Shown one piece after another: positions 2,823 to 50,659 of a DNA stretch of 64,000 bases. The notes beneath the pieces are model-generated. The model saw only the letters and a program-made list of their open reading frames with translations, was not told the origin of the DNA and did no database searches. This DNA is from Raillietiella orientalis. Lineage: Eukaryota. Each line of letters opens with the position of its first letter. Within the stretch, counting starts at the first letter, position 1. The position numbers were made by a program, and so were the translations under genes. The DNA lies in assembly GCA_036172245.1 (NCBI GenBank), contig JAYWIR010000026.1:62001-126000 (forward strand). Direction: 5' to 3'.

Positions 2823-3377
2823 ACAGTGCAGACGTGTTTTCGCGTCTATCCGCGCCAACGATCGGGCAACTTTGTGCCTGCGTTTTCGCTCGCACTTGTG
2901 TGTTCCTATGCAATCTGCCAAGTAGCATAGTGCAACTTGGCCAGTACACAGTATAGTGTGGACGAGCAAGCCACTCGATGCACTTCAGCTGCACTCGAAG
3001 GGGCCGCATCCTCCGCGGATGAAAATAAAGCATCCCCGCCCGCAACTCCCCGAAAAGGGAAAGTCACGGCGGGAAAGCCAATTAAAAAGGGGCGCGAGGG
3101 TTTGGCGCGTGCCGTGCCCTCCCTCTCTGCCGAACTCGCAAGCACCTTTCCGAGCCAGGAATTAGGAAATCAACGTAACACCCTGGAGGGAAAGGTAGGA
3201 AAACAGGAAGATCGCAACAGTGCGAAGACTTTTTGCCCCGTTCCGTTGTCCCTACCGAGTTCCGGACAGCCCCACTGCAGCGCAGGCCCCTCTGCAAAGG
3301 CTACGAAAGCCGTAAAAAGCAGCGTCGCGACGAGCAAAAGCACGCTGCATGCAGTCGCTCCATCACCGACTCGGCAG
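2823..3377 (+). mobile_element. 5' end of B-like element D (5' motif plus start of a low-complexity ORF1)
   Basis: AGACGTGTTTT at 2830; Ala/Ser/Lys-rich reading frame that resumes after the TSD at 9040-9054. Confidence 0.7.
3363..3377 (+). repeat. Target site duplication of element C (left copy)
   Basis: TCACCGACTCGGCAG here and TCACCGACTCGGCCG at 9040-9054 (14/15 match). Confidence 0.9.
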
Positions 3378-3518
3378 TTTTCCCCAAGTCCCACGAGGGG
3401 TAGGGTAAATTTATTTTTCTAAAATTTTTCTATAAACACATTCACACTACAATCTCATCCATAACATTAGCACTTTTTTTACCACTATGAAGTCCTTGGG
3501 TTCTTACAAGTTCTGCAC

Positions 3519-6500
3519 TCATGGTGGGTTTCCTGCTGTTTGGTCCAGGGCGTCGTCTTCTATCCACTTCAGGATGAATCGGTACGTCCAGGCTCGGATT
3601 TTCCTACAGTTTGTAATGCCGATTGTCCTCTTCAGGAGCACTTGTAGGATCTCCAACGGTGGTGCGGCTCTTCTTGCTTTCCTCATTTTCCACCACCGCA
3701 CAAGTATGCCGGTGATGAAGAGGGCTATGGTCGTCCTCACCATGGGATTGTAACAGGGAACATTAATATCCCCCTGAAATATTCCGGCGAGGATCTCCAT
3801 AACGGACTTGTTGGTAAGTCTTATGATCCTTTTCAGGATCAGCCAGTGATTCAGCAATGCTGGACACGTCAAGACGTGAAGTCTCGTGTCGGTGTCTCCA
3901 CATGCTGCGCAGTCTCGGTCTTCCGGTGAAGTGCTGCAATCAAGAACCACTCTGGATTCCTCCATGATAAAACATCAGGAGATCATCCTAAGTGCCCGGC
4001 GAAAGGTCACTCCTCCAGAGCGTCGTGCCAATCGCTAACAGGTTGATTCGGTTACTATCGTAGCGATCGGCGGCTTCCTGGAGGGCACTAATATCACTGT
4101 GTTCTTCTTGAATTAGTCTTCGGTGGTTTGTTTTAATAACAATCGACCACGCGAAGTCGTTATGGTTAATCCACACCTCGCGGGTGTGATCAGTGAACCT
4201 CCCTAACATCATCTCTATGTACCGAAGAACACGAGAGTGATCTGGGTTTCCTCCTCGGCGCCATTCCTGGATCCGTTGCAGGGTAACTCTGGACCGTTAA
4301 TGGATCCAGCTTCTCGTGTCCGGGAAGACAGGAAGAATCCAAGAGATCACCAGGATGGACTCGTCCTGCCAGAGTTCCCTAATTCTCAAAGCGATCTTGA
4401 TTTCGTGCTTTTGCACCAGCCGTTGCTCACTCGTCCAGGTTGGGTCGATTTTTTTCCATTCGCGTGCTCCGCCTAGCAGCGCAGTCATCAGGCCTTTCCA
4501 GTTGTTCAACAACAACGCGTAGGCCCTGTTCGCCGCATACGGCCAGTCATCCCAGTGAGTGGCAATGTGCAGGATGTGTCGCGTATTCATGATTTCTATG
4601 GAGTGTGCAAGCGACGTCATCCCAAAACCGCCTTATTCCCTGGGACGACACAGGGGTTTTAGTCGGACTCTTGGGCGATAGTGGCCACACAGTGTTTTTC
4701 TCTGCAGCTTGTCGAACTCACTCGTGGTGTCCTTGTTCATCCTCGCGAAGGCCGCCCCGAAGAGAACTTTTGGAAGGAGTACTTCGTTCCATATGTTGGC
4801 CTTTCGCTTCATTCCAAGGTCCGTTCAGGTGTACTTGGCTGCTTCCTTGGCCGTTTTCCCTAGGATCTCGGTCCACAATAGCTTCGACGCGGAGACGTCG
4901 TCAATGTAGACACCCAGGTATTTGGCCTTGTCCACCGTTCGGAATCCTCTCCCCGCTAGAGTGGAGAGATCCAGGATTCCAACGGGCAAAAGCTAACTTT
5001 TCTGGGCGTTGATCTTTAGACCGAGGCCTTGATCCATCAGGTCTACCACATCCAGAAACGCCCGTTGATTTCTCTCTCCCTTGATAAAGAAGAGTAGATC
5101 ATCAGTGTTTGCCAGATGGGTAAGACGCTGGCCATCGATTGTTGTGCCTTGCAGTCGTCCGCTCTTCTCGATAAAGGACGACATCGACTCCATGTAGATG
5201 GCGAACAGTATCGCGCTTAGCTAATGGCCTGCCGGTCTCCCTGTTCCATCCGGATTGCTGCCGTCTCCTGGCCGTTGATTTTGATTCGGCAGTACTGGTT
5301 CTGGAGTACCACCCTCACGAAGTTGCTGAAGTGTTCAGGAACGCCTAGCTTCTCCGAAACCTTCAGCAGCATTTCATGGTCGATGGAGTCGAAAGCCTTC
5401 TCCATGTCAGTTAACACCAGCGCCAGGTTCTCGCCGACGTATCGGCTGAGTCCGACGGTGGCCTGGGCACACTTGACATTGTCCGACATGTGACGTCCAG
5501 GGACTGCACACGTTTGGACCAAAGAGATGAGCTTTGACATGACCTTGCCGAAGCGGTTGGACCAGATCTTTGCAAACCACTTGGCATCCGAGTTCAAGAT
5601 CGAGATTGGCCTCCATTAAGCGACCTGCGTGAGGTCGCCTCCTTTTGGCAACAATCTTATCCGACTCTCGTAGAAAAACTGTAGAAGTCTTCCTTCTTCG
5701 CGGATGCAAAAGGTCAACTGGTGGAACGAACGCATGTAGGCATGCAGGTACCGCTGAGATTGAGTGATGGGTACGCTGTCAGGGCCCGCTGCCACGTCCT
5801 TGCGTAGTTGACCAAACGCAGTCTTCACCTCGTCTTCGGAGAATTCCTCCTCCAGTCTGTTGCGCTAAAGATCGTCGGTCCTCTTCTCGAGGTAGCTCAG
5901 AAAATCCTGTTGACTAGAGCGACAGAGATGTTGTCGCCTGAAGTGTTTCGTATAATACCTGTGAGAGGCATCCACGATGTCCTCAGACCACTGTCGCTTT
6001 TGACCGTCGTACTGGATCCAGAAGATATCTGTTGCCAGATTTCTCTTCTCCCGCACGCCGACTTCCCATTTTATGTTTCTGAAGACGTACGAACTCTCGT
6101 ACTGATCGAAGTACTTTGATAGTGAGCGATCTTGGATGTTCACCTCCTGGTACGCCTCCTGCTTCAAGCGCCTATCCCCGAACTGCATGTTTGCAAACAG
6201 ATGTATCCTGTGTTTCAGGCTGTCCCAGCTGGCGACTCTTCGGATCGTTGTTGCCTTCAGAATCGTCTCGAGGACTGCCTGATATCCGGGATAGGTTTCG
6301 AACCAGGCGGGCATGCTGATGAGCGCCGCCATGATGCCTTGCCTTCGCCGAGGCTTCTCCGTTCTTAGGTAAAACCGCACCAGGAGGTGATCGGACACCG
6401 TGGTCATAATGTTTTGAAAACCCTGAATGCGATTCCCTAGTTCGGTGCTGTGGAGTACGTGATCGATCGGTTTGTGACTTGCTGTTCGCCACACCAGTCC

Positions 6501-7028
6501 GAACTCGTGGGATAGCCGCTGATAAGCCGTACTTCCTCTGGCGTTCTGGGATTGAGTGATCTCATCCAATAGGTTGTCATCGCCAGCAACAATCACGACG
6601 TCCTTGGGGGCGACCTTTTCACGGAGTGCTGCATGCAGCGCCTCCGCACCACGATGTTTCAGCCTGTGCGGCCCGTACACGTTCACCAGGATGAGGTGAA
6701 CAGTAGCGGACCAGGCCAGTCGCACGCCGATGATTCGTCCGGGTTGGGCACAGAACACTTCCAGAATAGTGGGGGCCAAGTTGTTCTTGATTAGGACCGC
6801 CACACCCTGCGTGTTCCGTTCTCCCTCGCTGACGAAAATCTGCCCGTTGAATCGCCGTTCCATTTGCTGACTAATCTCGAGACCCATCTTGTGGGTCTCC
6901 TGCAGGCACACTATGTCTTGTTGTGCGATGGTCCGCACAATCCTTCTTCTTTTTCCCTGGTCGACCATACCGTTTACATTCCAGGAGGCGATGTTCAGCC
7001 TCCTGGCGGTCGATAGGGAAGAGGCCAT
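3519..7028 (-). pseudogene. Element C ORF2 (APE + RT + C-terminal Zn finger), disrupted
   Basis: IASWNVNG, LQETH, NVYGP, IDH, SDH, DMEKAFDSIDH, NTDDLLFF, CAACG..HVLTC; several stops and frameshifts. Confidence 0.92.
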
Positions 7029-7154
7029 AAAAGGAAAAGGCCTATTTCTTTGCCTTCCTGAGCTTCTTCTGTCTGAGAGAGCGTGCTCTTCCAGACAGTG
7101 AAGAAGCAGCGGGCTTCTCGCTGCCAGCGTCACTCTCCGTTCCAGTAAGGTCGG

Positions 7155-8977
7155 TTATTTTTGCCTCCTCCGTCGAGTGTCGGCCCGCGCGATCAATTTT
7201 CGAGATAGTGCCTCTATCTGGACCTTGGCGAAGAAGTTCGCCTTTATGTCGTCAAGCTGTTCCTCGAACTTCTCGCGTTTGGTGACCTCTACAACTTCGT
7301 TGAGCTTCTTCTGTGCATTGCTGAGCTTCTGCAAGAGTTTCTCTCGATGGGGACCCCTCTGCACCTCTATGACTTCATTAGTTAGTGATGCCAGCCCCTC
7401 CGTAGATTGCAGGGCCTCCTGCGATACAGGAGTGCTTCGTCTATTTCTTCTTCCTCCCTTTTCTGCTCTACCTCCATCTTCTCGCCTTCTTGCTCTTCAC
7501 CTTCCAGGATAATAGGGATTTCTCGCTCCTTGACGAGCATCCTCCTCTTTCCTTTCTTCCCTACCTGTATGAAGCCGTCTTCCGATACCGGGACGGCTTC
7601 TTTCACCTTCTTCGGCCTTCCTGCCTTCTGAGGCTGTTCCGCCTCCTTGGTGTTTCTCTCTCTCACGGGAGAGAGTCCTCGAATCCTTCTGCAGTTTGCA
7701 AACTCCGGACAGCTCCATTTGGCATGTCCGTGTTTCTTGCAGAAGGAGCACACCTCCGGCTGCGGGCAGTTTCCGACTTGATGTCCTACTTTGCCGCAGC
7801 GGGAACAACGACACGTTGGGCAAGCGCCCGTTCTGTGGCCGAACTGCTTGCACCCGGTGCAGAATATCGGCTGTTGCCGGTAACGCACGTTCACTCCCTG
7901 GGATTGTTCGTCAAGAACGGCTAATCCAGGGATCACAGCTCCCTCTTTCAACTCCATTTTGGCGATCATGTCGCCAGAAAATATTTTTCCAGAGAAGTTC
8001 TGGAATTCAAGGTCCAGAACTTCTTCATACTGTTCCAAAAAGTTCCACACCGTGAGTTGCGGTGTGAAGATGGAGATGCCGTTCAGAAACACGGTTGTGT
8101 ATGGCATCTTGCCAATGCCACAAACCATCTTCCCTTGTATATTGATCCCCTTCTGGATCAGTCCCTCTCTAATATTTTCACAGTCTGTGAAGACTGTGAA
8201 CCCGTTGTTTGCTCGTATGATCGCCTGTATGCAATCAAAATTGATATCCGTTTTATCGACGGACAGATACACCTTCCTGATATTATTAAACTTGATCACC
8301 CAAGTCTTGAAAATGATGAGCTTCACATTCGGTTCTAACTCCACGATCGGCCGATCCACCTTTTGGAGTTTGCCGCATAGCGGCTTCCCGAATTTTCTTG
8401 GTGGGTGGACACTCGCTTGTCCAACCGGCACCGACGCATAGGAAAAGGGCTGCGCCGCCGCAGCCGAACAAGATGGCGTCTCGCCCTGCACCGCGTGGAC
8501 GCCCGCGGGTCCTGCCTGGGACGCCGCTGCCGCGAGCGCAACCCTCGACGTCGCCACCGTTGCCGCCGCCGGCGGCACCCTCGGCATCGCCGCCGCAGGC
8601 ACGACCTTCCCTGCCGCGGGCACGCTCCTCGGCGTCGCCGCCGATGGCAGGACCTCCGCCGTCGTCGCCGCGGGAACGACTCTTGGCATCACCGCCGCCG
8701 ACGCAGCAAAGCCCGCCGCGGGCGCGATGCTAGGCATGCCTGCCACCGCCTCGCCGTTGCCGCACGTTACCTCCATGGCTTCCATGGGGGACGACGGTCT
8801 CTCCACTCCTCCTCCAGGTGCCTGCATGCTGGCAGCTGGTCTTCCTGCACGGGACGACTGCAGTTCTTTTGCCGTTATCTCCTCGGCGCTGCTTTTGTAG
8901 CTGTATGAGGAGATCCTATGCAGCCCACTATAGTGCACACTCACTTTCTTCAGGATACTTTCCCTCTCCGGGCACAT
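7155..8977 (-). CDS. Element C ORF1, gag-like with three CCHC knuckles (531-aa open frame 7382-8977; C-terminus probably frameshifted)
   Basis: CTGCKQFGHRTGAC, CSRCGKVGHQVGNC, CSFCKKHGHAKWSC; RRM-like upstream region; charged tail at 7155-7364. Confidence 0.85.
8550..8720 (-). repeat. Degenerate Ala/Pro-rich coding repeats in element C ORF1
   Basis: Repeated peptides such as MPRVVPAA, TPRSVPAA and MPRVPPAA. Confidence 0.6.
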
Positions 8978-9039
8978 ACGATCACAATCAACTAAGTAAT
9001 CCTCGTCGTGCGCGTTATACTATGACCCGCGATGCAAGG

Positions 9040-9054
9040 TCACCGACTCGGCCG
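9040..9054 (+). repeat. Target site duplication of element C (right copy)
   Basis: Matches 3363-3377. Confidence 0.9.
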
Positions 9055-10521
9055 GAGAGGAGCAATCTCGCGACTGTCAAGAAGGTGAATCCGTTGCCGC
9101 CTTCTAAAGGCGTAGCGAAAGCAACGTTCCCAGAGAACGCAGCGAAAATCTTGGAGGTTTCCGCAACTACTGTCGCGGAAGCCTCCGAAAATCGCGAAGG
9201 CGAATGGAAGGTTGTGGAGTGGAGGAAAGAAAAATCTCCAAAAAAAGCTTCCCAGCATCTCTCCCTGAGCTCTTCCAAAGGAAAAAGCAGTCGCGCGAAT
9301 AGGAAAACACGCGCGGCTTGTGCCTCTTCCCAGGAAAAAGCCAGCACCTTCGAAGCGTGCAAGTCCGCCTCTGTGAGCGCCGAGAAGACCACTCCGTTGC
9401 AATCGGACGGATGCAAGCTCACGTCAATCGTGCGAGCATCAGACTCCGCAAAGGAGTCCGATAGCGCCGCTGGATGACGCGTTACTCGCGCAAAAGCGAG
9501 CGCTTGCAGGGCTAAATTCCTGAGGCGTGACACACTCGCCGCGAAACGGCGAGTGCTCACCCCGGAACCCACAGGTTCTGCACCCGGGGAGGAGCACTCG
9601 ATTACGTGCAGCACAGTTGAGGCCGGTGGCGACTGCGCCCTCCAGCTTGTCGTGCTACTTACTGTCCGCTCGCCAAGTGAGGCGAGCACCACGGCCTTGC
9701 TTTCCCAGCCGTGATGAGGGCAATCGCGTCTCCTCGTCGTGTTGTTGGGACGTCTTGAAACTTCAACGGGCTCCAACACGAGGAGAAGAGGCGACTAGTG
9801 GCTGACACTCTGCGCGCCTTCTACTTGACGCTCCTGCAGGAGATTCACAGCATCTCCGAAGAGCAGGCTGCCGAAATCGAACGGCGCGCGGGCGGAACGC
9901 TACTTTATAGGTGCGGCGTTGCACGTACGTGCGGCGTCGCTTTCCTCGTGCGAGGAACTTTGGCGGGAGCGGTGCGCAGCCCTAGTTTCGACAAGGAAGG
10001 CCGAGTGGGACAGCTTGTACTCAAGTTGTTCGACTTGATCGACCTTGTCGTAACCAACGTGTACGCGCCGAGCGGTGCTGGACGATGGGCCGAAAGGATT
10101 GAGTTCTTCGGTACCGTTCAAAGCCAGTAGCCCACTCGATCTCACCCTACTGTGGATCATCTCATTGCGGGGGCTTTAACGTACACCTGCTTTCCGAGAA
10201 TAGCTCCCACAAAAGGAAAAAGTTGCTAGCGGAAGAGATGTGCGCGTCCGTGCACGCGTGCAACTTGTTCGCTAGCGACCCTATTATAGCAGCAACGCCG
10301 GACCACGTATACCTTGATGAATACTTGCTCTCTCGAGTGGGTCGGAGAGGTCCCGTGCCGTCCGTGCTTTCAGGCCACAACAGGCTCGAGTTCCATTTGC
10401 TCCCGCCAGGTAAGAGGCCTCCAAACTGTTTTTGGAGGATGCCGGCAGACTGGATAAGCCACCCGGAGGCGGCTGAGCATCTTCGCCAGTACCTCCTCGG
10501 CATTGCCATTAGTGAGCTCGA
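9055..10521 (+). mobile_element. Element D continued: ORF1 C-terminus and ORF2 APE domain (from 9714), degenerate
   Basis: TGATG at 9712-9716, then LLQEIH, CGVAFLV, VTNVYAP, DHVYLD and a degenerate SGH motif. Confidence 0.88.
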
Positions 10522-10767
10522 TTTTCATCCGGTTGCGCTGGGGCGTTCATTCCTTAGAATAGAACAAACGTTGGTGGCTGACAAGGTGGTCCGGCCACGC
10601 ACTGGTATACAAAATTAAGCCTGCCGGGTCAACAGTTCGTATTCCGGCACGGTCCATTACGACAGTAGAGGAACCAAGGACAAAACAAAAAATAAAACAA
10701 AAAAAAGAAATATTTAAAATCAAGATCTGGGGGGCACGGGAAGGGATCACAGTCTGCTGTGGGGCCG

Positions 10768-13700
10768 TTACATCCTTTGAAGGATGCCGGCAAGCTGTTT
10801 ATGGATTTTTGAATCCACATAAGTCCATCCTGTCGCCGTCCGCATAAATTCGTCTGCGCACTGGACGGCACCCTTATCGCGAGGGCCTCCCGTTGCTTTG
10901 CTCCATGCAGCGACGATCCCATGAGAGCAGCAAAGGGCTGCTAACGCGGCCGAGGGCCGAAGGGCGTCGCAAACGAAGAGGCATCTGATTACGTCTGTGG
11001 GGTTGCCACAGGGGTTACCGATTGCCGCGGCAAAACGGTTCCAAAGGGACCAAAAAGCCACACAATCCAAAAGGAGGTGAGAAAGGGACTCCCGTTCACC
11101 ACACCTCGCACAATTAGGGCTCACTGCTCCCAAGAAACAATGGTGACGGCGGACGTTGCACAGGAGTTCCTAATGCAGCAACAATAGCGCCGACTCCTGT
11201 CATTTTATGGGGAGGATGGAGGTGTTCATCAGCACCGGGAGCCACTTCAATTGTTCTCGCGGAACATTAAGCAGCTCGCTTCAGCGCATAAGTCCAATAG
11301 GAGGAGTAATCCGGGCCGCAGTATCGAAGAAAATACCCGTTTTCCATTCCCCGATCTTTTTTTACGTACCGGAGATATTAACATACACATCCCATTTCGC
11401 AGCAGTGTTGTCTTCCAAATGTTCCGCGAGCAGAAACAGCATTGCAACGAGGGGAGTTTTTCTTGCCCACGCTCGTATTTGTGGGTTTTCCAGGACCTCC
11501 CGGAGCATCAGGCGGTCATTACGTTCGAAGAGATGTCTCTGCCCTTCTTGGGTGCGTTGCTGGTTGCTCCTTGGCCACGTCTGAACCGTTTCCTGTAGCC
11601 ATGCAGGTCCGTTAACGAAGCGACAGCAGAGCCATCCTGCGTACTTGCTCATCAGGTCAGCCACTCTCCGTAGCTGCAACCAGCAGTGACCGACTTGGCG
11701 GCGCCGACGGAGCGCAAGGAAGGATGACAGTCCCACCTTGCCTGTAGCCTGCTCGACGAGGAGACGTGCGGGCTCGCACCAACTGCTACTCCAATATTTC
11801 GCCACTAGGGCGAGTAACCGAAACTGGAGCTGGAGCTCCAGCCGCTCTAGCGTCAGGAGGCCGACACCGCCGTCCCGACGCGGAGCGCTCAAGTCCTCAA
11901 GCCGGACTCGGGCCCTCCCATTACCCCACAGGGCAATCCTTAGGAGGTCCTTCGTCCGCTTTTTAGTCTCTGTGGTGGGAGGGCAAACAAAAAGTAGTGA
12001 ACGGAGAAGGGGTTTACGAACGCGTTCCACACCGTGGCCCATTCCGGCAGAAAAAACCTGCGGCCTTGGAACGGGCCGACAGCAATCTCTATCTTCTGAA
12101 GATAGCTGGACCACGCATCCGAAGGAAAAAAATCCCCTATCGGTACTCCAAAGTAGTTGAATTAGTTCACCGTAAAGATCCTTAAACGAACCCAGTCCTG
12201 CTGCCCTGGCCACGCCGCACCAACTGGCATCACGGACGACTTCGACCTGTTTACCTCAAGCTTGGTTCCCCGACTTTGCCGGTCGAAGAACTCCTCGACC
12301 GCCGATGCCGGGGTGGACATAGGGAGCAGCAGCAGTAGGTCGTCCGCATATGCTGACACCGCGGGCGTACCGGGATAGTCGCGCGGCAGGTGCGCTAGAG
12401 TTTCCCTGTACGCTCTGAGTACCAACTCGAAGTAGGTACTGAAGAGCAAGGGACTCAGGCTGTCTCCCTGTTGTATGCCGCGTCGCTCCGGTACGCCGTG
12501 CACGGTGTGTTTACTGGAAAAGATCTGGATGAGCGCGTCGCGCCAGCAGGATTGCAGGTAGGTCAGCAAAGAGACCGAGAAGCCCAAGCGTTCCAGGAGC
12601 TCCAGAAGGAGCCTCTGGTCGACACAGTCGAATGCTTTATGCAAATCGACTGCGACTGCGAGGGCTCCTTCCTCCCCCCCAACCATCCCGTTTCCTAGCG
12701 GCGGACATTCCGGAAGTCCGGTTGCCCATCCTGATTCTTTCCTGTTGGAGCGCGAAAAAGGTGCTGGCGAGGAACAGGTTGCCATCCACGCTCCGCCCGG
12801 GAACAGCATATGTCTGCTCCAGGCTAATGAAGCTTTCCGCTAACCGCCCCAGGCGTTCAGCCCACAATTTCGCTAGCAAATTGGCGTCCGGGTTTATCAC
12901 GGTAATCGGCCGCCAGTTGCTCATGCTCCGAAGGTCTCCTCCCTTAGGGAGGAGACGCACCTTTGCCGAACAAAACGAGGCGGGGACGTCGCCCGTTTCG
13001 CGGATCAGCAAGGTGAGTTTCTTTACAAGGGGAGTAAGCTTTGCCGCGAAACATTGAAAAAATTCCGCTGGCAGGCCGTCCTTTCCTGGAGCCTTCTTCC
13101 TTTTGAGCTTTTTGATGGCCGAGATGATCTCGCCCATCGTGAAAGGCTCGCCGAAGGTGTTTCTATCTTCCTACCCGATCGCCGGAGCGCCTTCCGGAAG
13201 AAGAAGTCGCGAGACATCCCGTTCCGGTGGAGCGCGCGCGTATACGGAATAGTAGAATTTTTTTAATAAGCCTTTTCCCCGGGCGGGGGCCGAGTGCTCC
13301 GAGCTCTGGTCGTCCAGTAAGCTGGCCGACCGGGATTGCCACGCCTGCCTCTCGGCTTCCGCACAATATTCGGCTAGCCTGCGTACGTCTGGTGTTCGCG
13401 CGTAACATCGAGATAGTAAATACCATCTCTCCTTACGCACGCTTTCACCAAACCCGGCAGGCAGGAGGTTCATAGGGAACTCCTCGCAAAAATTCCGGAC
13501 CGAGCGCTTGAAGCGGTCCCAGTCCTGAAGCGTCTGCAAGCTGAAACGTCATAGGAATCCGCGGAGATGCTCCGCGGCTTCCGGAAGTTTCAGCCAGTCC
13601 CCCGCTAAGCGGCACGCAGATGACGGCGGACCCCTGTCGCGTGGGCGCACATCGAGTACGATCAAGTCATGGTCCGACAGTTCCGACGGTAACTTGCCGC

Positions 13701-15962: not shown

Positions 15963-16064
15963 TGCTGCCCAGCCATTACTAAATCCACCGGCACACCAAG
16001 AAAAAGAAAAAAATAAAACCGCAAACGCTCAACAGCGAAACAAAAATTCGTCCGCACTCGTTCG

Positions 16065-16971: not shown

Positions 16972-17197
16972 TTTTCAACCGGATTTCGCCGGGGCGTTTA
17001 ATATAAAACAAACATTTATAGAGACGTGCAGTGGCTGGACCATTGCTTAAGCCACGCACGAAGAAACACAGAGCCTGCCGGGTCACCGGTTCGCAGACCG
17101 GTACGGTCCACCACGGCAGCAGGGGGAAGTGGGAAAAACAAAAAAAAAAAACAAACAAAGAAAAGAAAACAGAAAGTTGGGAGGGTAAGGGAAGGGA

Positions 17198-36339: not shown

Positions 36340-36510
36340 ACCCCTGAAAAAGGGGTCAACCGCCGCCTCGGAAGCGAGGGCAAAGACCCCCTTGAAAAAG
36401 GGGGCAAAAGCCCCGCTGGAACAGGGTGCAACCGCTTCCTTGAAAAAGGGGACAACCGCAACCCTGGAAATGGGCGCAACCGCCTCCTTGACAAAGGGGG
36501 CACCTGCACC
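36340..36510 (+). repeat. Approximately 27-bp coding tandem repeat in the H ORF1 N-terminus
   Basis: 9-aa units PLKKGAKA-, PLEQGATA-, SLKKGTTA-, TLEMGATA-, SLTKGAPA-. Confidence 0.75.
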
Positions 36511-41400: not shown

Positions 41401-43437
41401 TTTCAGATCGTCCCAGTCCACGAGCTCTTGAACGGCAAAGGTCCGGAGATGCTGGCGGAGGTGCTCCGCAGCCACCGGATTTCTCAATCAGTCGGCCGGC
41501 AACCTCCAGACGTGCGTCGAAGGGCCCTTGCTAGGCGGGAGTAGCTCAAACTCCAGCCTGTAGTGGTCGGAAAGCTCGGACGGCACGGGACCTCTTCGAC
41601 CCACCCGACAATGCAGGTGATCGTCGAGGAACACATGGTCCGGCAAAGCACGCATTCCGGGATCGTCGGCCAGCAAATTCGAGGCGTGCACCGACGCGCA
41701 CACCTCGTTCACCAGCCGTTTCTCCCGCCGACGGTGAGACTCCTCCGATAGCGCGTGGACGTTGAAGTCCCCGGCTACGAGGTGAGCCACGTCGGGGCCG
41801 GAGTTGCTGAGCCAGCAGTCGCGCAGTCTCTCGAAAAACTGCAGTTTCTCGGTGTGACGCGCGGAGCCGCTCGGCGCGTACACGTTCGTGACGACAAGGT
41901 TGATCGATTCGGACCACTTGAGAACAAGTTGGCCCACACGACCTTCCTCGTCGAAACAAACGCTCCGCACCGCTCCCGCCACCCTGCCCCGAACAAGGAA
42001 TGCGACTCCGCAGGTATTCTGGGAGCCTGACCTTCAATGGAGCGTCCCGCCTGCGCGAACTTGCAGATCGGCCGCTTGCTGCTAGGAGAGTGCGTGAATC
42101 TTTCGCAGCATGGATAGATCGAAGTCGCGCAGGACGTTGGCAACCAATCGCCTCTTCTCGTTGTCCTGCAGACCGTTGACGTTCCAACAGGCCACTCGGA
42201 CGCGACGGGAAGAAGCGAGACCGCGCATTGCTGCTACGGACATGGAAGTGCGTTCCTCGCCCCGTCCGGCGAGGCATCAGCCGGGAGCACGGCGGATGAG
42301 GTAGCGCAAGCGCTTCCTATCCCCGCCGCGCCGCTTGCGGCCGGCTCGGTGGAGTCGAGGACCATTGCCTCGGGCTCCGAGGAGCATCGGCAACCGTTCC
42401 CGGCATCAGGCTCTTGCCTGGCAAGTTTTGGCTTGCGCGCAGCCCTGGCCTTGACCGGGGCTTGGCGAGCCTTAGCGCTGCCCTCGGACTCCACCTCGGA
42501 GTCCGAATTGCGTGCGCGCGGCGGCGGGCGTTTCGCCTGCCTCTTTGTTTGCTGGCAGCCCTGAGCTGGTCCAGCACTCTTAGAGGGTGCCTTCGTCGCC
42601 GATCCCCCTCTCGGGTCACGGCTTCGGCAGCTCCCCTCTCGCCGCGGGTGTTTGCGGCGGCGCGCGCGGCGGCAGCAGAGGCTTTTCCTTGCGCCTATCA
42701 GGGCGCGAGGGTTCGCTCTTCACCCCGCCTACCTTTTTGATCGGGAAGTGGGAAGGATCGCGCGGTTTGCGCTACTTCTTTCCCCCGACGAAGGTCCAGC
42801 CATTCTCGCCGCCTTCCTGTTTGCCCCGGTTGGGCGCGAGGGCTTGCAGGGTCCTTCGCATCCTTTCCAAGGCCTCGGATACGGCGATCTAGGCCAGTGC
42901 CTCCTTCGCCACGTCTGCCTTCTGCACCTCCTTACCGGGAGGTGCGGGCACAGTGGCGGGATTCTCGGGTGTCGCGCGAGGCTTTTCAGCCTTTGCTGGC
43001 GTTCGGCCAGCCGTGGCCGGCTTGCCTGTCGCGGGAAAAGGGGCGCGCGACCCTTTTTCGACGCTCCGGTGGTCTTCCTCTGCGTGCCACCGCTATTGCG
43101 CTCCGGAGAGAGAGCGAACGGAAGCGGCGGTGGTTTTGCAGCCTGCCCGATGTTATCGGCGGGCTGGGTCGCTCGGGGCTTCACTGAAGCAGCCTGGAGA
43201 AGCTTCTTGTCCTTTCGCGCGGGTTTTTGTGGAGCATTGCTCCGAGAATCGCCCGCGCAAGCGGACTTTTCACTTCTCCGCTGAGAATGCTCATTCGCGC
43301 CTGATTTCTTCCCCGACGACGGGGCGGATGGAGTCGTCGCGGACGGCGATGTTACGGGGAGGTTTCTCGCCCTCCTATTTCGTTTCAGCTCGGCGCACTC
43401 GTTAATCGAGTGGCCGAGCAGCTTACAGTATCGGCAA
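38437..43437 (-). mobile_element. B-type element lacking its ORF1 5' end; uninterrupted ORF2 (38665-42228)
   Basis: CRYCKLLGHSINEC at about 43396-43437; VACWNVNG, NVYAP, AGDFN, SDH; terminal hairpin. Confidence 0.93.
38665..41334 (-). CDS. Open 889-aa part of B-type ORF2 (complete RT + C-terminal region)
   Basis: KALGEDG, WRPITLVNAD, DLRKAFD, RQGDSLSP, YADD. Confidence 0.92.
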   Translation of the reverse strand: MANSREFLQARQFFRCPDVRYLAEYKAKAERQVWQSGAACLLDDQGLECSGAAEVRRLLKRYYSLLYAREPTKRSLSELLLSADSPAVDEEERATLDLPFTAEEVSSAIAGLKKRKALGEDGLPAEFFQCFAAELIHLVLRLSALMREAGNVPASFRSARVRLLPKGGDMRHLSNWRPITLVNADVNLFSRLWVARLGRIAGSVVSTEQSYAVPGRSMVANLFFALTWLELQRCVAHDNQATASAAAEARRRCIRPGEAPGALAVAVDLRKAFDCVNQDLLLELLERLGLPVHLVAYLRACWRHALISISFSGCHVYGVPVRRGIRQGDSLSPLLFSIFFELVLRAYRLTLANLPSSCPGTPSEAAYADDLLLLLPMTTPASSLEDFFELIRRGAGMSVNRSKSVVVPIGAAWEGQSDWIRLGIPTASSVQYLDVPLGNISPVEVWSDCLRKASNALSPYHHGRFVLPKRATIWNTFVAPLLRPLLFVCPPPYSAKLQAHSLLRNALWGPARSRIRLKDLAAPRRDAGLGILTLERIELQVQLRMLALCANLWSTSWCAPARLLLRRCTGSDGLLSLRPHTERATRSFGFPLKPLYRLLEAQEWISCRPTNFEAWRQEPLHGWAKHKDVSLLELRCAHLSPYCTVDEVCNSQEKWTRLAVTSLSDALSVLRARDDSCEPTRWEVACTIAGTTRPIGGWKTCELADAATPRHVPEGLLRWSEHLSVPLEELVVPPSCLNTSVFPLSWKQDVIMLVHWGFHSNQRTNLVSGGVVSPNCKRCGEVETLPPLLFVCGVLEGLWRRLAPALLHQGDTARELMRRFFTPGGLSLGAVVATVCCTRAIDKAHRELEKLAILRQATGLASANMSSAAQWAHLPQGVRREIAGIHRWF

Positions 43438-46400
43438 CGAGCTCGGCAAGGAGGCCAAAGTCACCCTGTAGGCTCTCAGCACCAACTCAAAGTAGGTGCT
43501 CAAGAGCAGGGGACTCAGGCTATCTCCCTGCCTGATGCCTCGCCGCACCGGCACGCCATGCACCTTCTGACTGCTGAAAGAGACGGAAATTATGGCATGG
43601 CGCCAGCAGGAGCGCAGTTAGTTGATCAAGGAGGGTGGGAAGCCCATGCGACCCAGGAGCTCCAACAAAAGCCCCTGGTCAACACAGTCGAACGCCTTAT
43701 GGAGATCGACTGCGAGCGCTAAGGCCCCCTTCCCCGCCCGGCAGTCCATTCCCTGCCCTGCTGGCGGCCTTAAAGTGGGGTTGCCGATTTTTCCTTTCCC
43801 TTCCTTTTGACACCTCTGCGCGTGCATCCATGTGCTCGCGAAGAAGAGGTTGGCATCCATGCTTCGCCAGGGAACAGCATATTTCTGCTCCGGGCTAATT
43901 ATGGCTTCTGCCACCTGCCCCAGACGCGGAGCCCATAGCCCGGCAACCAACTTGGCGTCCGTATTCACAATCGTGATCGGACGATAGTTGTTTAAATTCC
44001 TAAGGTCTCCCCCTTTCGGAAGGAGCATCACTCTGGCTGACCGAACCGAGGCGGGAACATCGCCTTCGTCTCGGATCAGCCTTGTCAGCTGAAGCAGCAG
44101 GGGTGCCAGCTCTTCCGCGAAGCTCTGATAGAACTCCGCGGGCAAGCCGTCTTCCCCTGGAGCTTTCCGCCTCTTGAGCCTTTTGCTACAGGCGGGAATT
44201 TCGCCGGTGGTAAAAGGCTCATCGAGGCTTAACGACTCCTCCTCCCCTATTGCCGGGGCACCATCCGGAAGCAAGAGCCGACAGGCATCTTGATCCGGGG
44301 CAGCCCTGGCGTAAAGGGAGGAATAATAACTCCGCAAGAGATGCCGTACTGACGCCGGGGACGAACATTCCCGGCCCTGCTCGTCCAGCAAGCTGGCCGA
44401 CCCGGATTGCCAGGCTTGGCGTTCGGCCTCGGCGCGGTACTCGGCCAGGCGACGGACATTAGGGGTTCGCTCGTACCTACGGGCCTGTAAATAGGCCCGA
44501 TGGTTGCGAGGACCCTCGCCAAATCCGGAGGGCAGGCGGTCCAGGGGGAACTGCTCGCAGAACTCCCGGACCAATTCCTTAAAAAGGTCCCAGTCTTGGA
44601 GATTCCGGAGCGTGACGCCTCTCAGGTATTCGCGAAGGTGTTCACTCGCACCTGAGAGTCGCGTCCAGTCCCCCGGCAGACGCCAGTCCCTGGATGGCGG
44701 TCCTTTGTCGCGAGGCCGCATCTCGAAAATTAACCGGGAATGGTCCGACAACGTTGACGCAACCCTCCCCCGTTTGCCGACCCGTGAACACAGGTCAGCG
44801 TCGAGGAAGACGTGGTCGATGCTGCGGACCATTCCCCTCTCACCCGCGAACAAGTTGCGCGCACGCATATCGGCGCACAACTCGTTCATCGCGTTCACCT
44901 GTGTTTCCGGCTCACCTGTCAGCAGGTGGAGATTGAAATCTCCCGCTATCAGGTGAGCATTCCGCACGCTCGTGTTCGCCAGCCAGTCGCGCTTCAGGGA
45001 TTCAAGCAGCCTGGTACGGTTGCTGTATCCCTTTTGACCGGTTGGGGCGTACACATTCGTGACGATCAGATCGATCGAGTCGGACCAGCCGAGAGTAAGC
45101 TGACCGACCCGACCGTCGTCATCGAAGCGCACGCCCTTCACGGCAGCGTCGATGGCCGGCTTCACGAAGAACGCGACCCCGCAGGTGTTGCGGATGCCGC
45201 ATTGCCAGTACAGCCGACCCCCCGCGATCGTCTCGATCTCCTGGACGTCTGCCGCGGTGATCACGTGGATCTCCTGCAACAGGGCCAGGTCGAACTCCCG
45301 CAGGGTGTCGGCTGTATCTCGCCTGTTACCGTCGTCGCGCAGCCCGTTGACATTCCAACAGGCAGCGCGAATCCGACGGCGACTGGCGAGCCCAGGTGTT
45401 ACTCCTGGGAAGATGGCAGTGCGGCGTCCGCCACCTGCTGGGGCGGGACGCTAGGTGGAGCAGGGGGGTCAGGTGCTGAAGGCACCTGGTCCCCCTCCTC
45501 CATCGGTGCCGGCGCGTCGGCCGGATCACCCGCAGGTGGAGTCGCGCCTACCTGTTCGCCCTCCTCCATGGGGGCGGGCTGTTCAGGGTCGGCGCCTGCA
45601 TGGGGGACTTCACCCCCCTGTTCACCCTCCTCCATGGGGGTGGCGGCATCGACGGCTTCCGTGCGTGGGAATTCCTCCTCCGAATTTCCCACGCTGCCGA
45701 CGGCTTCCGACTTCTCCTCCTCGCTAGTGGAGGGGAGGCGCCTCCTGGGCTTCTGGGACTTGCGTCCCGACTTCCTGGGGGGTGCCTCCGAGGAGGAGGA
45801 TGTGCTTCCGGCCCCCAGGTCTAACTCACCTTTGGGGGCCTTCTTCGCCGGAGCCGGCCTTCGCACGGCCTTGCGCGAGGGGTTCTCACGCTCGGCCAGC
45901 GTGACCGCGAGCTCCTCCGCCGCCTGCGCGAACGCGGCGTCCGTGGCTTCGACAGCCGCTATGTCGCGCGGCTCACCCTCTGTGTAAACAGAGGGTTCGC
46001 CGTCGCGAGCCTCGGGCGCAGCGGAAACGGCAAGGGGAGGATCGACGCTCCGGGTGGCAATATCGGGAACGACGATTCGTTCCAGTGCCACCGTGCACTC
46101 GCGCAAAGTTTTCGAACGCGGACCGGGTTTTTTCGGCTTTCCGGCCGTCTTGCGCTCTTTGCTCTCCGCGGGTGGGAGTTTCCTTGGTTTTCTGGCCTCT
46201 ACAAGCTGCCATCCCTCTTCGCCTTCCACCGTTTCAGAAGGTTTATCCTCCGGCTTACGCGCCGGAGGTTGAGGTGTTGGCAGCTTGTGTTGTCCCTTTT
46301 CCACTTTAGGTCTAGAGACCTTTGAAGCACGTTTCCCCTGCGCTTTTTTCGCGGCAGGGGGAACCGGGGTGGGGCGTTTGGGGCACACGCGCCGAACGTG

Positions 46401-47249
46401 GCCCCGTTCCCCGCACAAATGGCATTGTATATTGGGACACCTTTTACGTAGGTGTCCCACGGTATCACAATGCCCGCAATACCGGGGCTTCCCTACATAC
46501 CACAGGTCGACGTTTTCTTGCGCCACCTGTAGTTTGTGTGGAAGCCCACAATTCTCCCGTACGGTGACCCGCGCTGCAGCCTACCCACCAAAAAGGCTAT
46601 CGAAGCCGTCGAAAATGGAGGGTTTCGGCCACAGTGCGTGCACCTCACCGTACTTTCTGAATTCCTCACCAACCGCTGACCGCGTCATGCGGCTGGTGAT
46701 GCCAGTCATGTGGACCACCACGGAGCGGTCCATTGATACTGGCAGGATCTTGCGGCCGTCTACGTTCAGCGGCGCATGGATTAGGCGGTGAGCCAAGGTG
46801 ACATCTTTGCAGACCACCTCGACCCGCTGCCCGCCGCTGAGGACGGAGAGGCCGTCCAGATCCTTCTCTGTAACATTCGCGTCCTTCAACGCTTTGCTGA
46901 AGGCGCGCGCTGTCCGGCCGGCGAACAAGTTGCCTACCTGGTAGACAAGCGATGGCTTGTACCCGGAGGCCTTGTATGCGGCCATCTCCGCCATGGCTTC
47001 TGCGCTGGGCGCGGCCACCATGGCGCTCCATGTCCTCGGCGTGGCCGGGGATGATTCCGGGGCGGCTGCCCCTGCTCCAGTAGGCTGTGGGGGCGAACTA
47101 GCCTCCCCCACTCCCACCTCCATCGCGGTGTCCTCTGGCGTCGTGGCCATTGGACACCGACGATGTACACAAAACACCACACAGAAGAAAAAGCGCTTTG
47201 CTACTACTCTTTGGGGAGTGAAGGAAAAACACGTCCTTCAACTGGCCGC
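43438..47249 (-). mobile_element. F-type element F2 (ORF1 45399-47150; ORF2 APE to mid-RT), 3' part lost
   Basis: 5' GGACGTGTTTTT at about 47225-47236; two CCHC knuckles; 553-aa open APE-RT frame at 43618-45279. Confidence 0.92.
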
Positions 47250-48593
47250 GGAGGGGTTGGCTGCAACGATGGAGCCAACTCCTCCGCCGCACGCTCGAAG
47301 GCAGCGTCATCGATCACGGTCTCGATGACGGATGCTTCCGCCGTTCCGCTTTCCACGCTGTTGACATTTTCAACAGTGGGTTGCTAGTCGGTAGCAGCGA
47401 TTTCTACCTTGCGGCGTTCGTTGAGGACGCGTTCCACGACGACGCTGCATTCTTTTAAATTCTCGCTAATTTGCTGTTTTTCATTTCGGTAGGCGAGCTT
47501 TTTTTCAATTCGTCGTTCTTTCTTCGACTTTTTCTTTTTGGCTGTGGCTTCTTGCCATTCCGACACCTGACCGCTTTTTTTGATCTTTTCGGCATTCGTT
47601 GCCGGGGTGTCGTCTGAGGCCTGGACCACGGGAGTGGGTGGCACAGCTTGAGCGGCAGCCTTCGCCGCCAGCCTTTTCTGTAGCAGCCGCGCGCGTTTTT
47701 CCAGGTTCCTCGCGGAATCCACGCGCACAGCGGATTGTGGACACACGTCCTTCGTGTGGCCCATTTTTCCGCATACCAGGCACTGTACGTTGGGGCACCT
47801 CCTTTTGAGGTGTCCCGACTTGTTGCAGAAGCCACAGTATTTGTGCTTCCCCACGTACCAGAGGTGGACGCTTTCTCCGCCGACCACCAGTTTGTGGGGA
47901 AGGGTAGAGCCCTCCCGAACGGTTACACGGGCAGCCGTGAGGCCGCACTGAACTTTGGTATAGTTCTCGAAAGGACTAGGCTTGGTCCATACTGCATGGA
48001 CCGTGCCTTCTTTTCCCAACGCGGCGCGTAACTGTTCTTTCCGCATCCGAGCAGTAACTCCTAAAAGGTGGACCACCATACTGTGGTCCGCCGTAACAAG
48101 AAGGAGCCTGCGTGTCCCCATTTCCACGGGGGTTTCAAGCAGACGTTGGGCCAGATCTGCATGTTTGCAGATCACCTCTACGTACTGCCACCCGCTACGA
48201 ATGGTCATAGCGCAGAGCTCCTCCTCTTTAACATCGAGAGCGCGCATCCCCTTCGAAACGGCGCGCGCACTCTCAGAAGAATACAAATTTCCTACCTTGT
48301 AGAATAGTGATGCGTTATACCCCTCTTCCACATAGGCAGATAATTCCGCCGCGGCTGCAGGCGATGGCGCCGACACGACGGCGCTCCACGCCCGCGCTGC
48401 AGCGGGAACCGGTTTTGTGGGGGCGAACGCCCCCACCTTTGCCAATGAAGGCGACGTTGCCGCCGCCCCCTGACACGCACTGGTGGTTGTGTAAGGCATT
48501 GCTGCCTGATCGACCACCACCACACACGATGCCCACACCTAGGGACGGTTCCAAGCACGAGGAGCACCGAGGAAACACGTCCGCTCTAGCCGA
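47250..48593 (-). mobile_element. Family A 5' part (ORF1 from 48499), probably the 5' end of A2
   Basis: CGFCNKSGHLKRRC and CLVCGKMGHTKDVC; 5' GGACGTGTTT; abuts CGTAAAGCGTTCGA (48594-48607), which matches 33768-33781. Confidence 0.88.
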
Positions 48594-50659
48594 CGTAAAG
48601 CGTTCGACAGCGTAAACCAGGACCTCCTTCTGGAGCTTCCGGGACGCCTAGGCCTCCCGACGCACCTCATTGCCTACTTGCGCTCCTGCTGGGGCCACGC
48701 GTTATGCTGTATCTCTTTCAGCGAACGCCACGTGTACGGCGTTCCCATACAGCTAGGTATCAGGCAGAGAGACAGATTAAGCTCTCTGCTCATCAGCATC
48801 TTCTTCGAGTTGGTGCTCAGGGCGTACAGGCTTACGCTGGCCAACCTGCCGCGCTCCTGTCCGGGAACACCGGCCGTAACCGCCTATGCTGACGACCTTC
48901 TTCTGTTGCTGCCCATGTCCACTCAGGCGTCCAGGTTTGAGGACTTCTTCGAGCTCATTCGTTGGGGGCGGGCCTGTGCGTCGACACGACGAAATCAACT
49001 ATTGTACCGGTTGGCTCTACGTGGGATGGGCAGTCCGACTGGATCCGACTAGGGATCCCAACAAGGAGGTGCTTGAAGTACCTTGGCCTTCCCTTGGGCG
49101 CTTTCTGTCCAACAGAAGCGTGGTCGGACTGCCTTCACAAGGCCGAGACGGCTCTGGGCCCGTTCCAAGGCGGCAGGTTTCTCCTGTCGGAACGGGCCTT
49201 CGTGTGGAACATTTTCGTTGCCCCCCTCCTCCGTCCTCTCTTTTTTGTTTGTCCCCCTCCCTACTCGGCTAAGCGTCGGGCGCAACGCCTGCTGCGAAAC
49301 ACCTTGTGGGGACCGGAGAGGTCTAGGATACGCCTCAAGGACTTGGCGGCTCTCCGGCGGGATGCAGGATTGGGCATCCTGACTCTCGAGCGGATCGGAC
49401 AGCTAGTGCAGTTTCGCATGCTCGCACTTTGCGCCCAGCTATGGACTACTCCCTGGTGTTTTCTAGCGCGGATGCTGCTGCGGCGCTGCACGGGTGGCGA
49501 TGGTCTTCTTGCGTTGCACCTGCGCACGGAGTGCGCCCTGAGAAAATTCGGCTTCCCACTGAAGCAGCTCTCCTCGCTTCTGGGAAAGCATGCGTGGATC
49601 TCCTGCCGGCTGACGAACTTCAACGCCTGGAGGCAGGAAGCCTTATTGTCCTAAGCAGCGCAACAGGATGTGTCCCGTTTGGAACTCCGTTGCGTGAATC
49701 TTTCCCATATTGTTTAGTGGGGGAGGTGCTTGAAGACGAGAACCAGTGGACACGCTTAGCCGCTTCGCCCCTCGCCAAAGCACTGTGTGCATTCATGGTG
49801 GAAGACGACAGTGACCTGTAGGCGAGGTGGAAGGTAGTTTGCGAAATCGCAGGCGAAACCCGACTGCTGGGCGGCTGGAGGAATTGCGAGCTGACAGACG
49901 CTGCCACTCCTCGCCTTCGTTCCAAGGGACTTTTCTTGTGGAGCCAGATCCTCGGGGTGACCACCGTAGAACTTGTGGTCCCTTCTGCGTGCTTGGACGC
50001 TACTGTGTTCTTCCTTCGGTGGAAACACGACGCTTCTCTGCTGGTGCATTGGAGTCTTTACTGCAACCAGCGCGCGCACCTGGTTTCCGGGGGAGTTGCG
50101 TCCCCGAACTGTGCCAAATGCGGAGCGGTGGAATCGCTTCCGCATTTGCTGTTTGAGTGCGGTGCCCTCCAGGAGCTGTGGCAGCGGCTGTCTTCAGCGC
50201 TCCATCACCCCGGACACCGCACTGGATTGGATGCGCCGCTTCTACACGCGTGGCGGACTTTCTCTTGGAGTGGTCGTCGCAATCATCTGCTGCGTCCGCG
50301 CCATTGTCAGGGTCCGCCACGTATTGCAGATGCGAGCAGTCTCAACATCGGTCCCCGACACCGCAGCCTGCAACCTGCAAATGGCTGCCGGGTGGCCACA
50401 TCTTGGAGCAGAAGTGAGGACGGAGATCGGCGGCATTCAACGCCGGTTCTGAGAACAGGAACGGTTAGACTGTATACCCCTGTCCCCGCCCTCCCACCCA
50501 ATTTATTTATTTATTGTCCCCACCCCTTCCCGTTCCGAACTCTCAGTGTGCCCGGCCTGCGTTCCGGGAAATCTACTCCCCATCTTCTGTTCCCCTTGCC
50601 TGGGAACACACTTCCCAGATGATATTATAAATAAACGTACCGGAGCAACTGGGTAATAA
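48594..50659 (+). mobile_element. B-type element 3' half, degenerate
   Basis: Starts RKAFDSVNQ; YADD, KYLGLPLG, CAKCGAVESLPHLLFEC; degenerate hairpin at 50630-50659. Confidence 0.9.

Follow-up and report, generated by a model that had tools for sequence, protein, structure and literature searches.

Evidence for site-specific antisense insertion of LINEs into conserved coding motifs of other LINE families in a nested cluster of Raillietiella orientalis

A stretch of 64,000 nucleotides from Raillietiella orientalis (assembly GCA_036172245.1, contig JAYWIR010000026.1, positions 62,001 to 126,000 of the forward strand; hereafter the window) carries a nested cluster of at least three related families of long interspersed nuclear elements (LINEs) of the apurinic/apyrimidinic endonuclease (APE) type, L1/Tx1-like. 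Our work concerns the junctions within this cluster, where the 3' ends of one family lie antisense in the KAFD codons of the reverse transcriptase (RT) gene of a second family, and the 3' ends of that second family lie antisense in the GGRL codons of the APE domain of a third. LINE fragments make up nearly the whole of the first block of the window, up to about position 54,300, in which the GC content is 0.52-0.64, against 0.46-0.50 in the adjoining flank (54-62 kb). No tRNA, no Rfam match and no satellite array was detected in the window. The flank of lower GC content (54300-61700) is devoid of long open frames, RNA genes and LINE similarity, and LINE fragments start again beyond it, at 61727-63133.

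Pfam profiles identified APE (PF03372, E 7e-13 and 5e-14), RT (PF00078, E down to 2e-21) and, in the first open reading frame (ORF1), a weak zinc knuckle among the ORFs of the window. Fragments were placed in protein coordinates by a tblastn map based on three reference frames from the window itself; this map gave the domain order APE then RT and contains both full-length and 5'-truncated copies. An N-terminal APE followed by RT in ORF2 places the elements among the APE-type non-long-terminal-repeat retrotransposons (L1 superfamily in the wide sense). The named proteins nearest to the ORF2 products of the window are L1/Tx1-like proteins from fish, frogs and ticks (25-33% identity). In public protein collections, the nearest relatives were L1-type ORF2 proteins with no more than 33% identity, apart from one metagenome protein, P0001, which is 60% identical to the RT of the copy called B2 below (the query in that search) and has an uninterrupted KAFD motif. 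The Atlas neighbours of the window proteins are LINE-1 ORF2 clusters.

We distinguish A-type copies (A_a to A_e, with A_h as the 5' part of A_e), B-type copies (B1 to B4) and F-type copies (F1 to F3). H is the piece that the original prediction had called H-type, and G, X and O are three further fragments. The five junctions reported previously are J1 to J5, numbered in window order, first those at KAFD and then those at GGRL; a sixth, newly found, is Jb. Two stretches, the 900 nt after KAFD and the 380 nt before it, were used for maximum-likelihood trees, with X as the root. These trees contain an A clade, ((A_a, A_d) 98, A_e) 96 plus (A_b, A_c) 100, and a B clade, ((B2, B1) 100, H) 98 after KAFD and (((B2, B1) 98, B4) 76, B3) 92 upstream of it; F3 was placed between the two with weak support. 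All families have in common a 5' terminal motif, GYGGACGTGTTTT, found in five copies by pattern and in three by eye (2828, 33390 and 47238), as well as a compact 3' end composed of AATAAA, a CCGG/CCGG stem-loop and a 5-nt tail, without poly(A). The tail is GAAAA in the A group, GACAA in B1 and B2 and AATAA in H. The window contains seven 3' termini of this type, all of them intact, and a search with the seven 120-nt tails found no others.

The A-type 3' ends (...AATAAACGCCCCGG-N6-CCGGGTGAAAA) meet host sequence ending in ...TTCGA at 16971/16972 (J1), 29587/29588 (J2) and 33781/33782 (J3), while the B-type 3' ends (...CCGGGTGACAA) meet ...CGG-YTG-N at 24549/24550 (J4) and 38436/38437 (J5), each cut position being ambiguous by 1-2 nt. 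These are the nucleotides given in the original prediction, and the host frame lies on the opposite strand in five of five cases, as had been claimed. The hosts are only 64-75% alike, and the use of an identical nucleotide in an identical orientation cannot be chance. A fourth A-type 3' end, at Jb (10519/10520), lies in B1 at a site outside KAFD, after ...GAGCTCGA, which shares only the TCGA core. Three of the four A-type 3' ends are therefore at KAFD and one at ...GCTCGA, with TCGA common to both, and two of the three B-clade 3' ends are at GGRL; insertion at these five junctions is specific to one nucleotide of a host motif.

The pattern of occupied and empty sites also stands as first described. 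KAFD is interrupted in three of four B-clade copies (B1, B3 and B4; the B2 site at 40524 is empty) and in none of six A- and F-type copies (1275, 12638, 19083, 27477, 35890 and 43698), two of which, at 12638 and 27477, are indeed duplicates of each other, 100% identical there. A seventh empty KAFD-equivalent site, at 5399, belongs to the unrelated LINE X. The corresponding APE sites of the B-type copies are empty in three of three cases, and the sequence found there is GGTL, not GGRL. One detail has to be amended: the GGRL hosts had been described as F/H-type, and both are F-type. The 3' end of H itself (...CTGGGTAATAA at 50659) sits in ORF1-like sequence and not at GGRL.

B1, on the plus strand, is a single copy in three pieces split by two full-length A-type inserts on the minus strand. 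Its first piece (9702-10519) starts at APE aa 14, next to X, covers APE aa 14-284 and includes the empty GGTL site. It is followed by A_b (10520-16055, canonical 5' end at 16055), in the non-KAFD site, and by the second piece of B1 (16056-16971, 90% identical to B2), which runs up to the KAFD codons and contains the left copy (16958-16971) of a target-site duplication (TSD). A_d (16972-22449, 5478 bp) is inserted antisense at this KAFD site (J1). The third piece (22459-24549) comprises the right TSD copy (22459-22472) and the remaining parts of RT and of the C-terminal region, and it closes with the 3' end of B1, which is junction J4. At this point B1 meets F1 (24550-26648, minus strand), the 5' part of an F-type copy with its 5' end at 26648, ORF1, and APE as far as ...IAGVRL, cut after CGG-CTG-T. 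Further to the right, A_c (26657-29587, plus strand), an A-type copy without its 5' part, ends antisense at KAFD (J2) of B3 (29588-33390, minus strand), a B-clade host that extends from its 5' end at 33390 to the KAFD codons and whose 3' part was not found in the window.

The right half of the cluster can be parsed cleanly. B4 (33391-33781, plus strand; RT aa 154 to KAFD, left TSD copy 33768-33781) and H (48594-50659, plus strand; right TSD copy 48594-48607, rest of RT, 3' end) are the halves of one 5'-truncated B-clade copy, the host at J3. A_e (33782-36141, minus strand), a 3' part, and A_h (47250-48584, minus strand), a 5' part with a canonical 5' end at 48584 and the start of ORF1, are the two ends of the A-type insert that separates them. 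Both pairings rest on the fact that the pieces, when mapped to A_d and B1, complement each other; B4 and H are further joined by their 72-75% identity to B1/B2, by their common position as sisters to B1/B2 and by the duplication that flanks the insert. Inside this insert lie F2 (36139-38436, plus strand), with its 5' end at 36139, ORF1, and APE as far as ...IARGRL, and F3 (43439-47238, minus strand), which runs from its 5' end at 47238 to RT aa 369 and has empty KAFD (43698) and GGRL sites. Within those lies B2 (38437-43438, minus strand), whose 3' end cuts F2 after CGG-TTG-A (J5). B2 retains an 899-aa open RT/C-terminal frame, and its KAFD (40524) and GGTL sites are empty; a canonical 5' end is lacking, and on the 5' side the copy meets F3 at RT aa 369 in the same orientation. 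H, in turn, ends in O (50660-52000, minus strand, right border approximate), the ORF1-like 5' part of another LINE copy, whose sense strand at the junction reads ...GCTTCGATCGT. Our attempt to parse the left half (1-33390) as a clean nest gave none. The cluster spans at least 54 kb and reaches a nesting depth of up to five (B3, A_c, F1, B1, A_d); like the Zepp and ZeppL clusters, it was built by insertion into existing copies.

How many events do these junctions represent? One old insertion of each kind might have been copied by segmental or inverted duplication and then have decayed, in which case the junctions would be identical by descent. Several features of the cluster point in this direction. 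Alignments run across the junctions, 16580-19334 with 33400-36141 at 82% and 22459-24866 with 40527-38127 at 94%, and two arms, 22459-33390 and 40527-33391, mirror each other with the same order of types (B 3' part, F 5' part, A, B to KAFD). The original prediction had set congruent trees and equal divergence against itself. The three-taxon topologies of inserts and hosts are congruent, which counts against independent insertion and would occur by chance in one case out of three. The divergences are unequal in every pair: over the same gene region, inserts and hosts are 84 versus 72% alike (Fisher p = 0.0003), 77 versus 64% (p = 0.0001) and 72 versus 65% (p = 0.047).

The structure and the coding divergence of the copies are likewise at odds with copying by duplication. 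Both junctions are kept in three of the four A-type inserts (J1, J3 and Jb). The inserts at J1 and J3 are flanked by TSDs of 14 bp (16958-16971 versus 22459-22472, and 33768-33781 versus 48594-48607), matching at 12 of 14 positions in each case, a level reached by only 5 of 5000 random 51-nt windows; the duplication at Jb is about 4-5 bp long (CTCG). A_d and A_e/A_h are thus full length with TSDs of their own, whereas A_c starts elsewhere. Intact 3' ends, variable 5' truncation and TSDs are the hallmarks of target-primed reverse transcription, a mechanism which we infer here. In both full-length inserts at KAFD, 9 extra nucleotides lie between the 5' end of the insert and the duplication (22450-22458, CCTGGAGTA; 48585-48593, TCTAGCCGA), and A_b has none or one at its 5' end.

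The KAFD hosts have diverged mostly under purifying selection. The ratio of nonsynonymous to synonymous divergence (dN/dS) is 0.26 for B1-B4 (dS 0.89), 0.38 for B1-B3 (dS 0.94) and 0.27 for B3-B4 (dS 1.21), and the excess of differences at third codon positions is significant in B1-B4, B1-B3 and B3-B4 (p = 0.003, 0.002 and 0.0003). These values identify the KAFD hosts as separate retrotransposition products of functioning lineages. Since an ORF2 carrying a 5.5-kb antisense insert could not stay under such selection, the selection on the hosts predates the inserts, and a duplicated composite, whose insert would have broken the ORF, cannot easily account for it. Pairs of A-type inserts have dS values of 0.28-0.63 and dN/dS of 0.28-0.36; the insert lineages, too, split under selection, but far more recently than the hosts.

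A similar discrepancy is found at GGRL. The two inserts, B1 and B2, match at 1944 of 2000 positions (97%), with differences spread evenly over codon positions, whereas their hosts, F1 and F2, match at 193 of 240 positions (p = 1e-20 versus the inserts) and thereafter at only 45-68%. In the conserved ORF1 domain of F1 and F2, the proportions of nonsynonymous and synonymous differences (pN and pS) are 0.31 and 0.76, i.e. synonymous sites are saturated. The intact 5' ends of F1 and F2 also adjoin different positions of different A copies, the F1/A_c and F2/A_e borders being about 180 codons apart. A segmentally duplicated composite should have diverged equally and neutrally in all its parts; here, host dN/dS is 0.26-0.38, and a pS of 0.76 between F1 and F2 stands against 3% divergence between their inserts. 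Along the mirror arms, identities are about 97, 45-87, 73 and 65-69% in order, and the borders between F and A differ, so that we read the arms as repeated use of the same targets rather than as an old inverted duplication. Descent of all junctions from one insertion of each kind is thus already largely refuted, and a single copied composite is very unlikely. We count at least three independent A-type insertions at KAFD and two independent B-type insertions at GGRL, spread over the period when both the insert and the host lineages diversified.

The same copies bear traces of exchange at the DNA level. A_b (10520-13458) and A_c (26657-29587) are 99-100% identical over 2.3 kb (26757-29056) and have the same broken frames (pieces of 177, 225 and 297 aa); their last 530 nt are 57-82% alike, and their hosts and sites differ. 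The pattern resembles a tract of gene conversion between dead copies, or else the product of a recombinant master. A_b is also the copy in which a deviant 3' end and a deviant target site coincide. B1 and B2, compared over 9702-10519/41421-42218, 16072-16973/40512-41413 and 22459-24549/38437-40527, are 69% identical in APE, 90% before KAFD and 91-92, 96-100 and 92-97% after it, with a stretch of 1.4 kb at 96-100%, a mosaic that would be accounted for if B lineages had recombined or if two B copies had become fused. DNA-level homogenisation, apparently by gene conversion, does occur in the cluster. It makes identity alone a poor clock, and to this extent weakens the case for independent insertion; the argument from selection does not depend on identity.

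Given such mosaics (A_b/A_c and B1/B2), one may ask whether the junctions are hot spots of recombination, template switching or gene conversion at conserved motifs, without any endonuclease-directed integration. The similarity between families does fall off at the KAFD motif, and the flanks of B1 are at nearly homologous positions of two different elements. However, the partner at each junction is an intact antisense LINE 3' terminus and not a homologous position; template switching would be expected to yield sense-oriented chimeras; and two of the inserts are flanked by 14-bp duplications. We consider it very improbable that hot spots of this kind produced the junctions.

Other observations should be weighed against site-specific insertion as well. 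The events come from a single 64-kb window and number 3 + 2, and searches of metagenome, genome and viral contigs, detailed below, found no related loci. No matching 5' flank was found for any B-type insert: the 5' sides of B1 and B2 meet other elements, so that deletions or rearrangements must be assumed; for the join between B2 and F3, this means that several kb were deleted when the element integrated or that the sequence was rearranged afterwards. Finally, the consensus fold of the 3' ends comprises only 4 predicted pairs, without covariation.

Three fragments at the left edge of the window complete the picture. A_a (1-2827, minus strand, placed by tblastn) is an A-type copy from about aa 62-66 of APE onward, 89% identical to A_d, with an empty KAFD site at 1275 and its 3' part beyond the window edge. 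It adjoins G (2828-3450, plus strand, right border approximate), the 5' fragment of an element with a canonical 5' end (GCAGACGTGTTTTCG), which begins 46 nt upstream of the RL-codon site of A_a. G has no translated similarity to other copies in the window, including B2, B3 and any ORF1; this, together with the fact that about 1.5 kb would be lacking, leaves G unsupported as the missing 5' part of B1. X (3450-9701, minus strand, borders approximate) is a divergent, unrelated LINE inserted in the cluster, recognized by Pfam PF03372 and tblastn and used as tree outgroup, with about 26% amino acid identity to F-type ORF2; its APE spans 5865-7154, its RT extends to 4549, and an upstream ORF of 545 aa (7382-9019, minus strand) has no Pfam match.

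The outer flanks of the block from G to B1, 2782-2836 in A_a and 24550-24595 in F1, are at nearly homologous positions (46 nt before the RL codons of A_a and at the RL codons of F1) and about 63% alike. Possibly, B elements were inserted twice at GGRL-type sites, and recombination afterwards fused the two insertions, leaving these flanks as a trace. The idea that F1 and A_a are the halves of one host of B1 was rejected after a codon-by-codon comparison, in which the putative 46-nt duplication copies were about 63% alike. Five times in the window, a 5' end meets an element of the opposite strand at an arbitrary internal cut (9701/9702, 26648/26657, 33390/33391, 36141/36139 and 2827/2828). The terminal motif is intact at four of these borders and the end of X is approximate at the fifth; nesting explains two, on the right side. 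Tandem repeats of 24/48, 42 and 57 bp are present in the 5' untranslated region or ORF1 of F2 (36304-36511), A_d (22257-22337) and F1 (25229-25346), respectively.

Taken together, the TSDs, the divergence of hosts under purifying selection and the much greater likeness of inserts than of hosts support independent, site-specific insertion. The interpretation given in the original prediction is partly supported. Its claim that the target is a coding motif of other LINE copies is upheld at the level of codons: antisense insertion into a conserved codon position of another LINE is real in this window and persists across diverged sublineages. We assign a probability of about 0.78 to the full reading, in which A-type elements insert into the RT KAFD codons and B-type elements into the APE GGRL codons, antisense and site-specifically, in several independent events within a cluster that feeds itself.

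What sequence is recognized can be narrowed down from the junctions. At KAFD, the host sense strand runs up to ...GCRTTCGA, and the next letters are the reverse complement of ...TGAAAA. In J1 as well as in J3, the duplication copy on the right has the sequence TTCGAC, so that a cut after TTCGA, with a margin of 1-2 nt, is the simplest assumption. TTCGAT occurs 34 times in the window and CTCGAT 38 times, so that recognition must exceed six bases. The families differ 6-9 nt downstream of the cut, where B-clade copies have GTAAAYCAR (3 of 3) and A/F copies GTYGACSAG (6 of 6); the fuller context is GTCGACCAG in the A/F type and GTAAAYCAG in the B type. The CGGYTG core of the GGRL site is found in F1, F2, F3, A_a and A_b (five of seven A/F-like copies), is altered in A_d and in an F-like fragment at 62876-63133, and is replaced by ACN-CTN, encoding GGTL, in three of three B copies.

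These features suggest target-primed reverse transcription by means of a sequence-specific endonuclease. The endonuclease of the element would nick the host sense strand at the target, with recognition presumably reaching beyond the TCGA core, and the freed 3' OH would prime synthesis on an RNA end bearing the stem-loop, which could act as entry site for RT; the RNA 3' end may also pair with the target. A second nick 14 nt upstream would then give rise to the target duplication. The APE gene of B elements, with GGTL and without CGGYTG, and the RT gene of A/F elements, with GTCGAC and not GTAAAY 6-9 nt downstream, might be poorer targets for the element that carries them. As the targets exist only inside LINE copies, a cluster of this kind would feed itself, as proposed for Zepp.

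It is tempting to go further and to suggest that each family hits the version of a motif carried by another family and spares its own, so that the families disable one another. The occupancy of KAFD (3 of 4 in the B clade versus 0 of 6 in A/F), the fixed differences after the KAFD cut and in the CGGYTG core (0 of 3 B copies, 5 of 7 A/F-like copies) and the order of the nest (B, A, F, B, A on the left; B, A, F, B on the right) would all agree with such strict cross-family targeting. The occupancy bias has a hypergeometric probability, calculated by hand, of only 4/120 = 0.033, and the count is confounded, as inserts are by definition younger than their hosts and A copies have been less exposed. 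In addition, the empty KAFD sites of A_a and A_e carry TTCGAT/TG, the same sequence as the empty site of B2, A_b occupies a non-KAFD site, and the position of the G 5' end, close to the RL site of A_a, hints at an A-type host for a B-like insert. The claim that the families target each other is not borne out either: the window presents a chain, with A inserted into B and B inserted into F (possibly also into A-type copies), and neither an insertion of B into A at KAFD nor one of F into B was seen, that is, zero reciprocal pairs.

Sequencing reads provided a further view of host choice. Only one public run, X1, shares words with the window (share 0.05, for words of 52000-61999). It contains related elements. 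For 22400-42399 this run gave 471 contigs, 304 of them less than 90% alike, and the joints between paralogous RT regions, which were most of the joints, were set aside. A joint from 41971 to 38441 was seen as well, and parts without cover were left out. One joint leads from 33848 to 27473, with 2 letters between the two parts and a depth of 2. It fits, on thin evidence, a truncated A-type insert of 66 nt, antisense in an A_c-like KAFD site; the duplication would start within 1 nt of the expected position, and the host side maps to A_c-like RT with at least 80% likeness. Two other contigs stop at the B-type terminus (38440), where they carry another flank. Thin as they are, these data argue for the target site and against strict avoidance of the own family. 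The preference for B-clade hosts at KAFD stands as a count, strict avoidance of the own family is at most suggested by it, and strict cross-family targeting appears rather unlikely to us.

Still less probable, and clearly speculative, is a closed cycle of targeting, with the RT motif of B as the landing site of A, the endonuclease motif of F (and of A) as that of B, and A-type copies as that of F. In such a cycle, every family would have altered, in its own copies, the motif that it attacks, B having GGTL and A/F having VDQ in place of VNQ after KAFD. The nest order and the fixed motif differences would accord with it, and the 5' ends of the F-type copies (3 of 3) and of G do adjoin A-type sequence. 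However, each of these four borders is at another position of the A sequence, the window lacks F-type 3' ends, and in one X1 contig the host of an A-type insert seems to be A-like. If true, such a cycle would constitute a self-renewing 'rock-paper-scissors' community of LINEs that creates and upholds a Zepp-like, possibly centromeric domain.

We did not detect related loci in wider searches. The 3'-terminus pattern matched two loci in metagenome contigs and one in genome contigs, none with similarity to the window elements, and viral contigs gave no match to the B2 RT protein. With the 204-aa frame across J2 as query, no protein with a junction-derived tail was found at E <= 1e-10 among 532 candidates. 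In the literature, as represented by the sections available to us and with the original Zepp papers, Repbase and Dfam not covered, no nucleotide-level target inside a LINE coding motif was found.

The cluster resembles those formed by Zepp in Coccomyxa/Chlorella and by ZeppL in Chlamydomonas, described as self-inserting, nested and putatively centromeric in green algae (PMC3446292, PMC8226300, PMC9940879, bioRxiv 10.1101/2025.03.28.645958). The contrast in GC content reported for Zepp (61% versus 53%) is paralleled here by 0.52-0.64 versus 0.46-0.50 in the flank (PMC3446292, PMC8226300), and satellite arrays are absent from the cluster here too. Zepp clusters are described as arrays mostly of the 3' ends of one family (PMC3446292, PMC8226300), whereas here several diverged families, with full-length inserts, are nested antisense at two codon-level sites. 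These algal clusters are reported as the main sequence of putative centromeres in several species, and homing is described there merely as targeting of existing copies. A codon-level target in the RT and endonuclease genes of sibling LINEs would, if confirmed, offer a concrete mechanism by which new copies find the cluster. The landing site would exist only where LINEs already exist, would be renewed with each new copy and would be held constant by selection on the enzymes, which would account for strict clustering without a chromatin reader. Cnl1 of Cryptococcus is likewise described as a LINE that prefers insertion within itself and forms nested arrays in one chromosomal compartment; its arrays are tandem, subtelomeric and of one family, in contrast to antisense insertion into other families in our window (PMC9942834).

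The use of a constrained, multicopy sequence as a renewable and harmless landing site is also known from R1/R2, Keno/Utopia and further LINEs with conserved multicopy genes as targets (PMC4640811, PMC5035012). Here, in contrast, the constrained 'gene' is the RT or endonuclease gene of another retrotransposon, and the endonuclease differs in type from that of R2 and Utopia (PMC4640811, PMC5035012). If true, our reading would provide a further instance of retrotransposon copies being inactivated by a different autonomous lineage, with a bearing on competition between transposon families; the destruction of a competitor, as put forward in the original prediction, would be an evolutionary interpretation. 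For endonuclease assays, both target sequences, which are short, and the compact 3' end can be used directly. A close parallel for the target choice itself is provided by Tx1-clade LINEs, APE-type elements reported to insert at one position of other transposons (Tx1L in Tx1D, Tx1-Mar in Mariner-N4_AMi and Tx1-9_AMi in Harbinger), with a specificity credited mainly to the endonuclease (PMC4494074). The target in R. orientalis differs in being a coding motif of a sibling autonomous LINE, and not a DNA transposon, RNA gene or microsatellite, and two families within one cluster use two different motifs.

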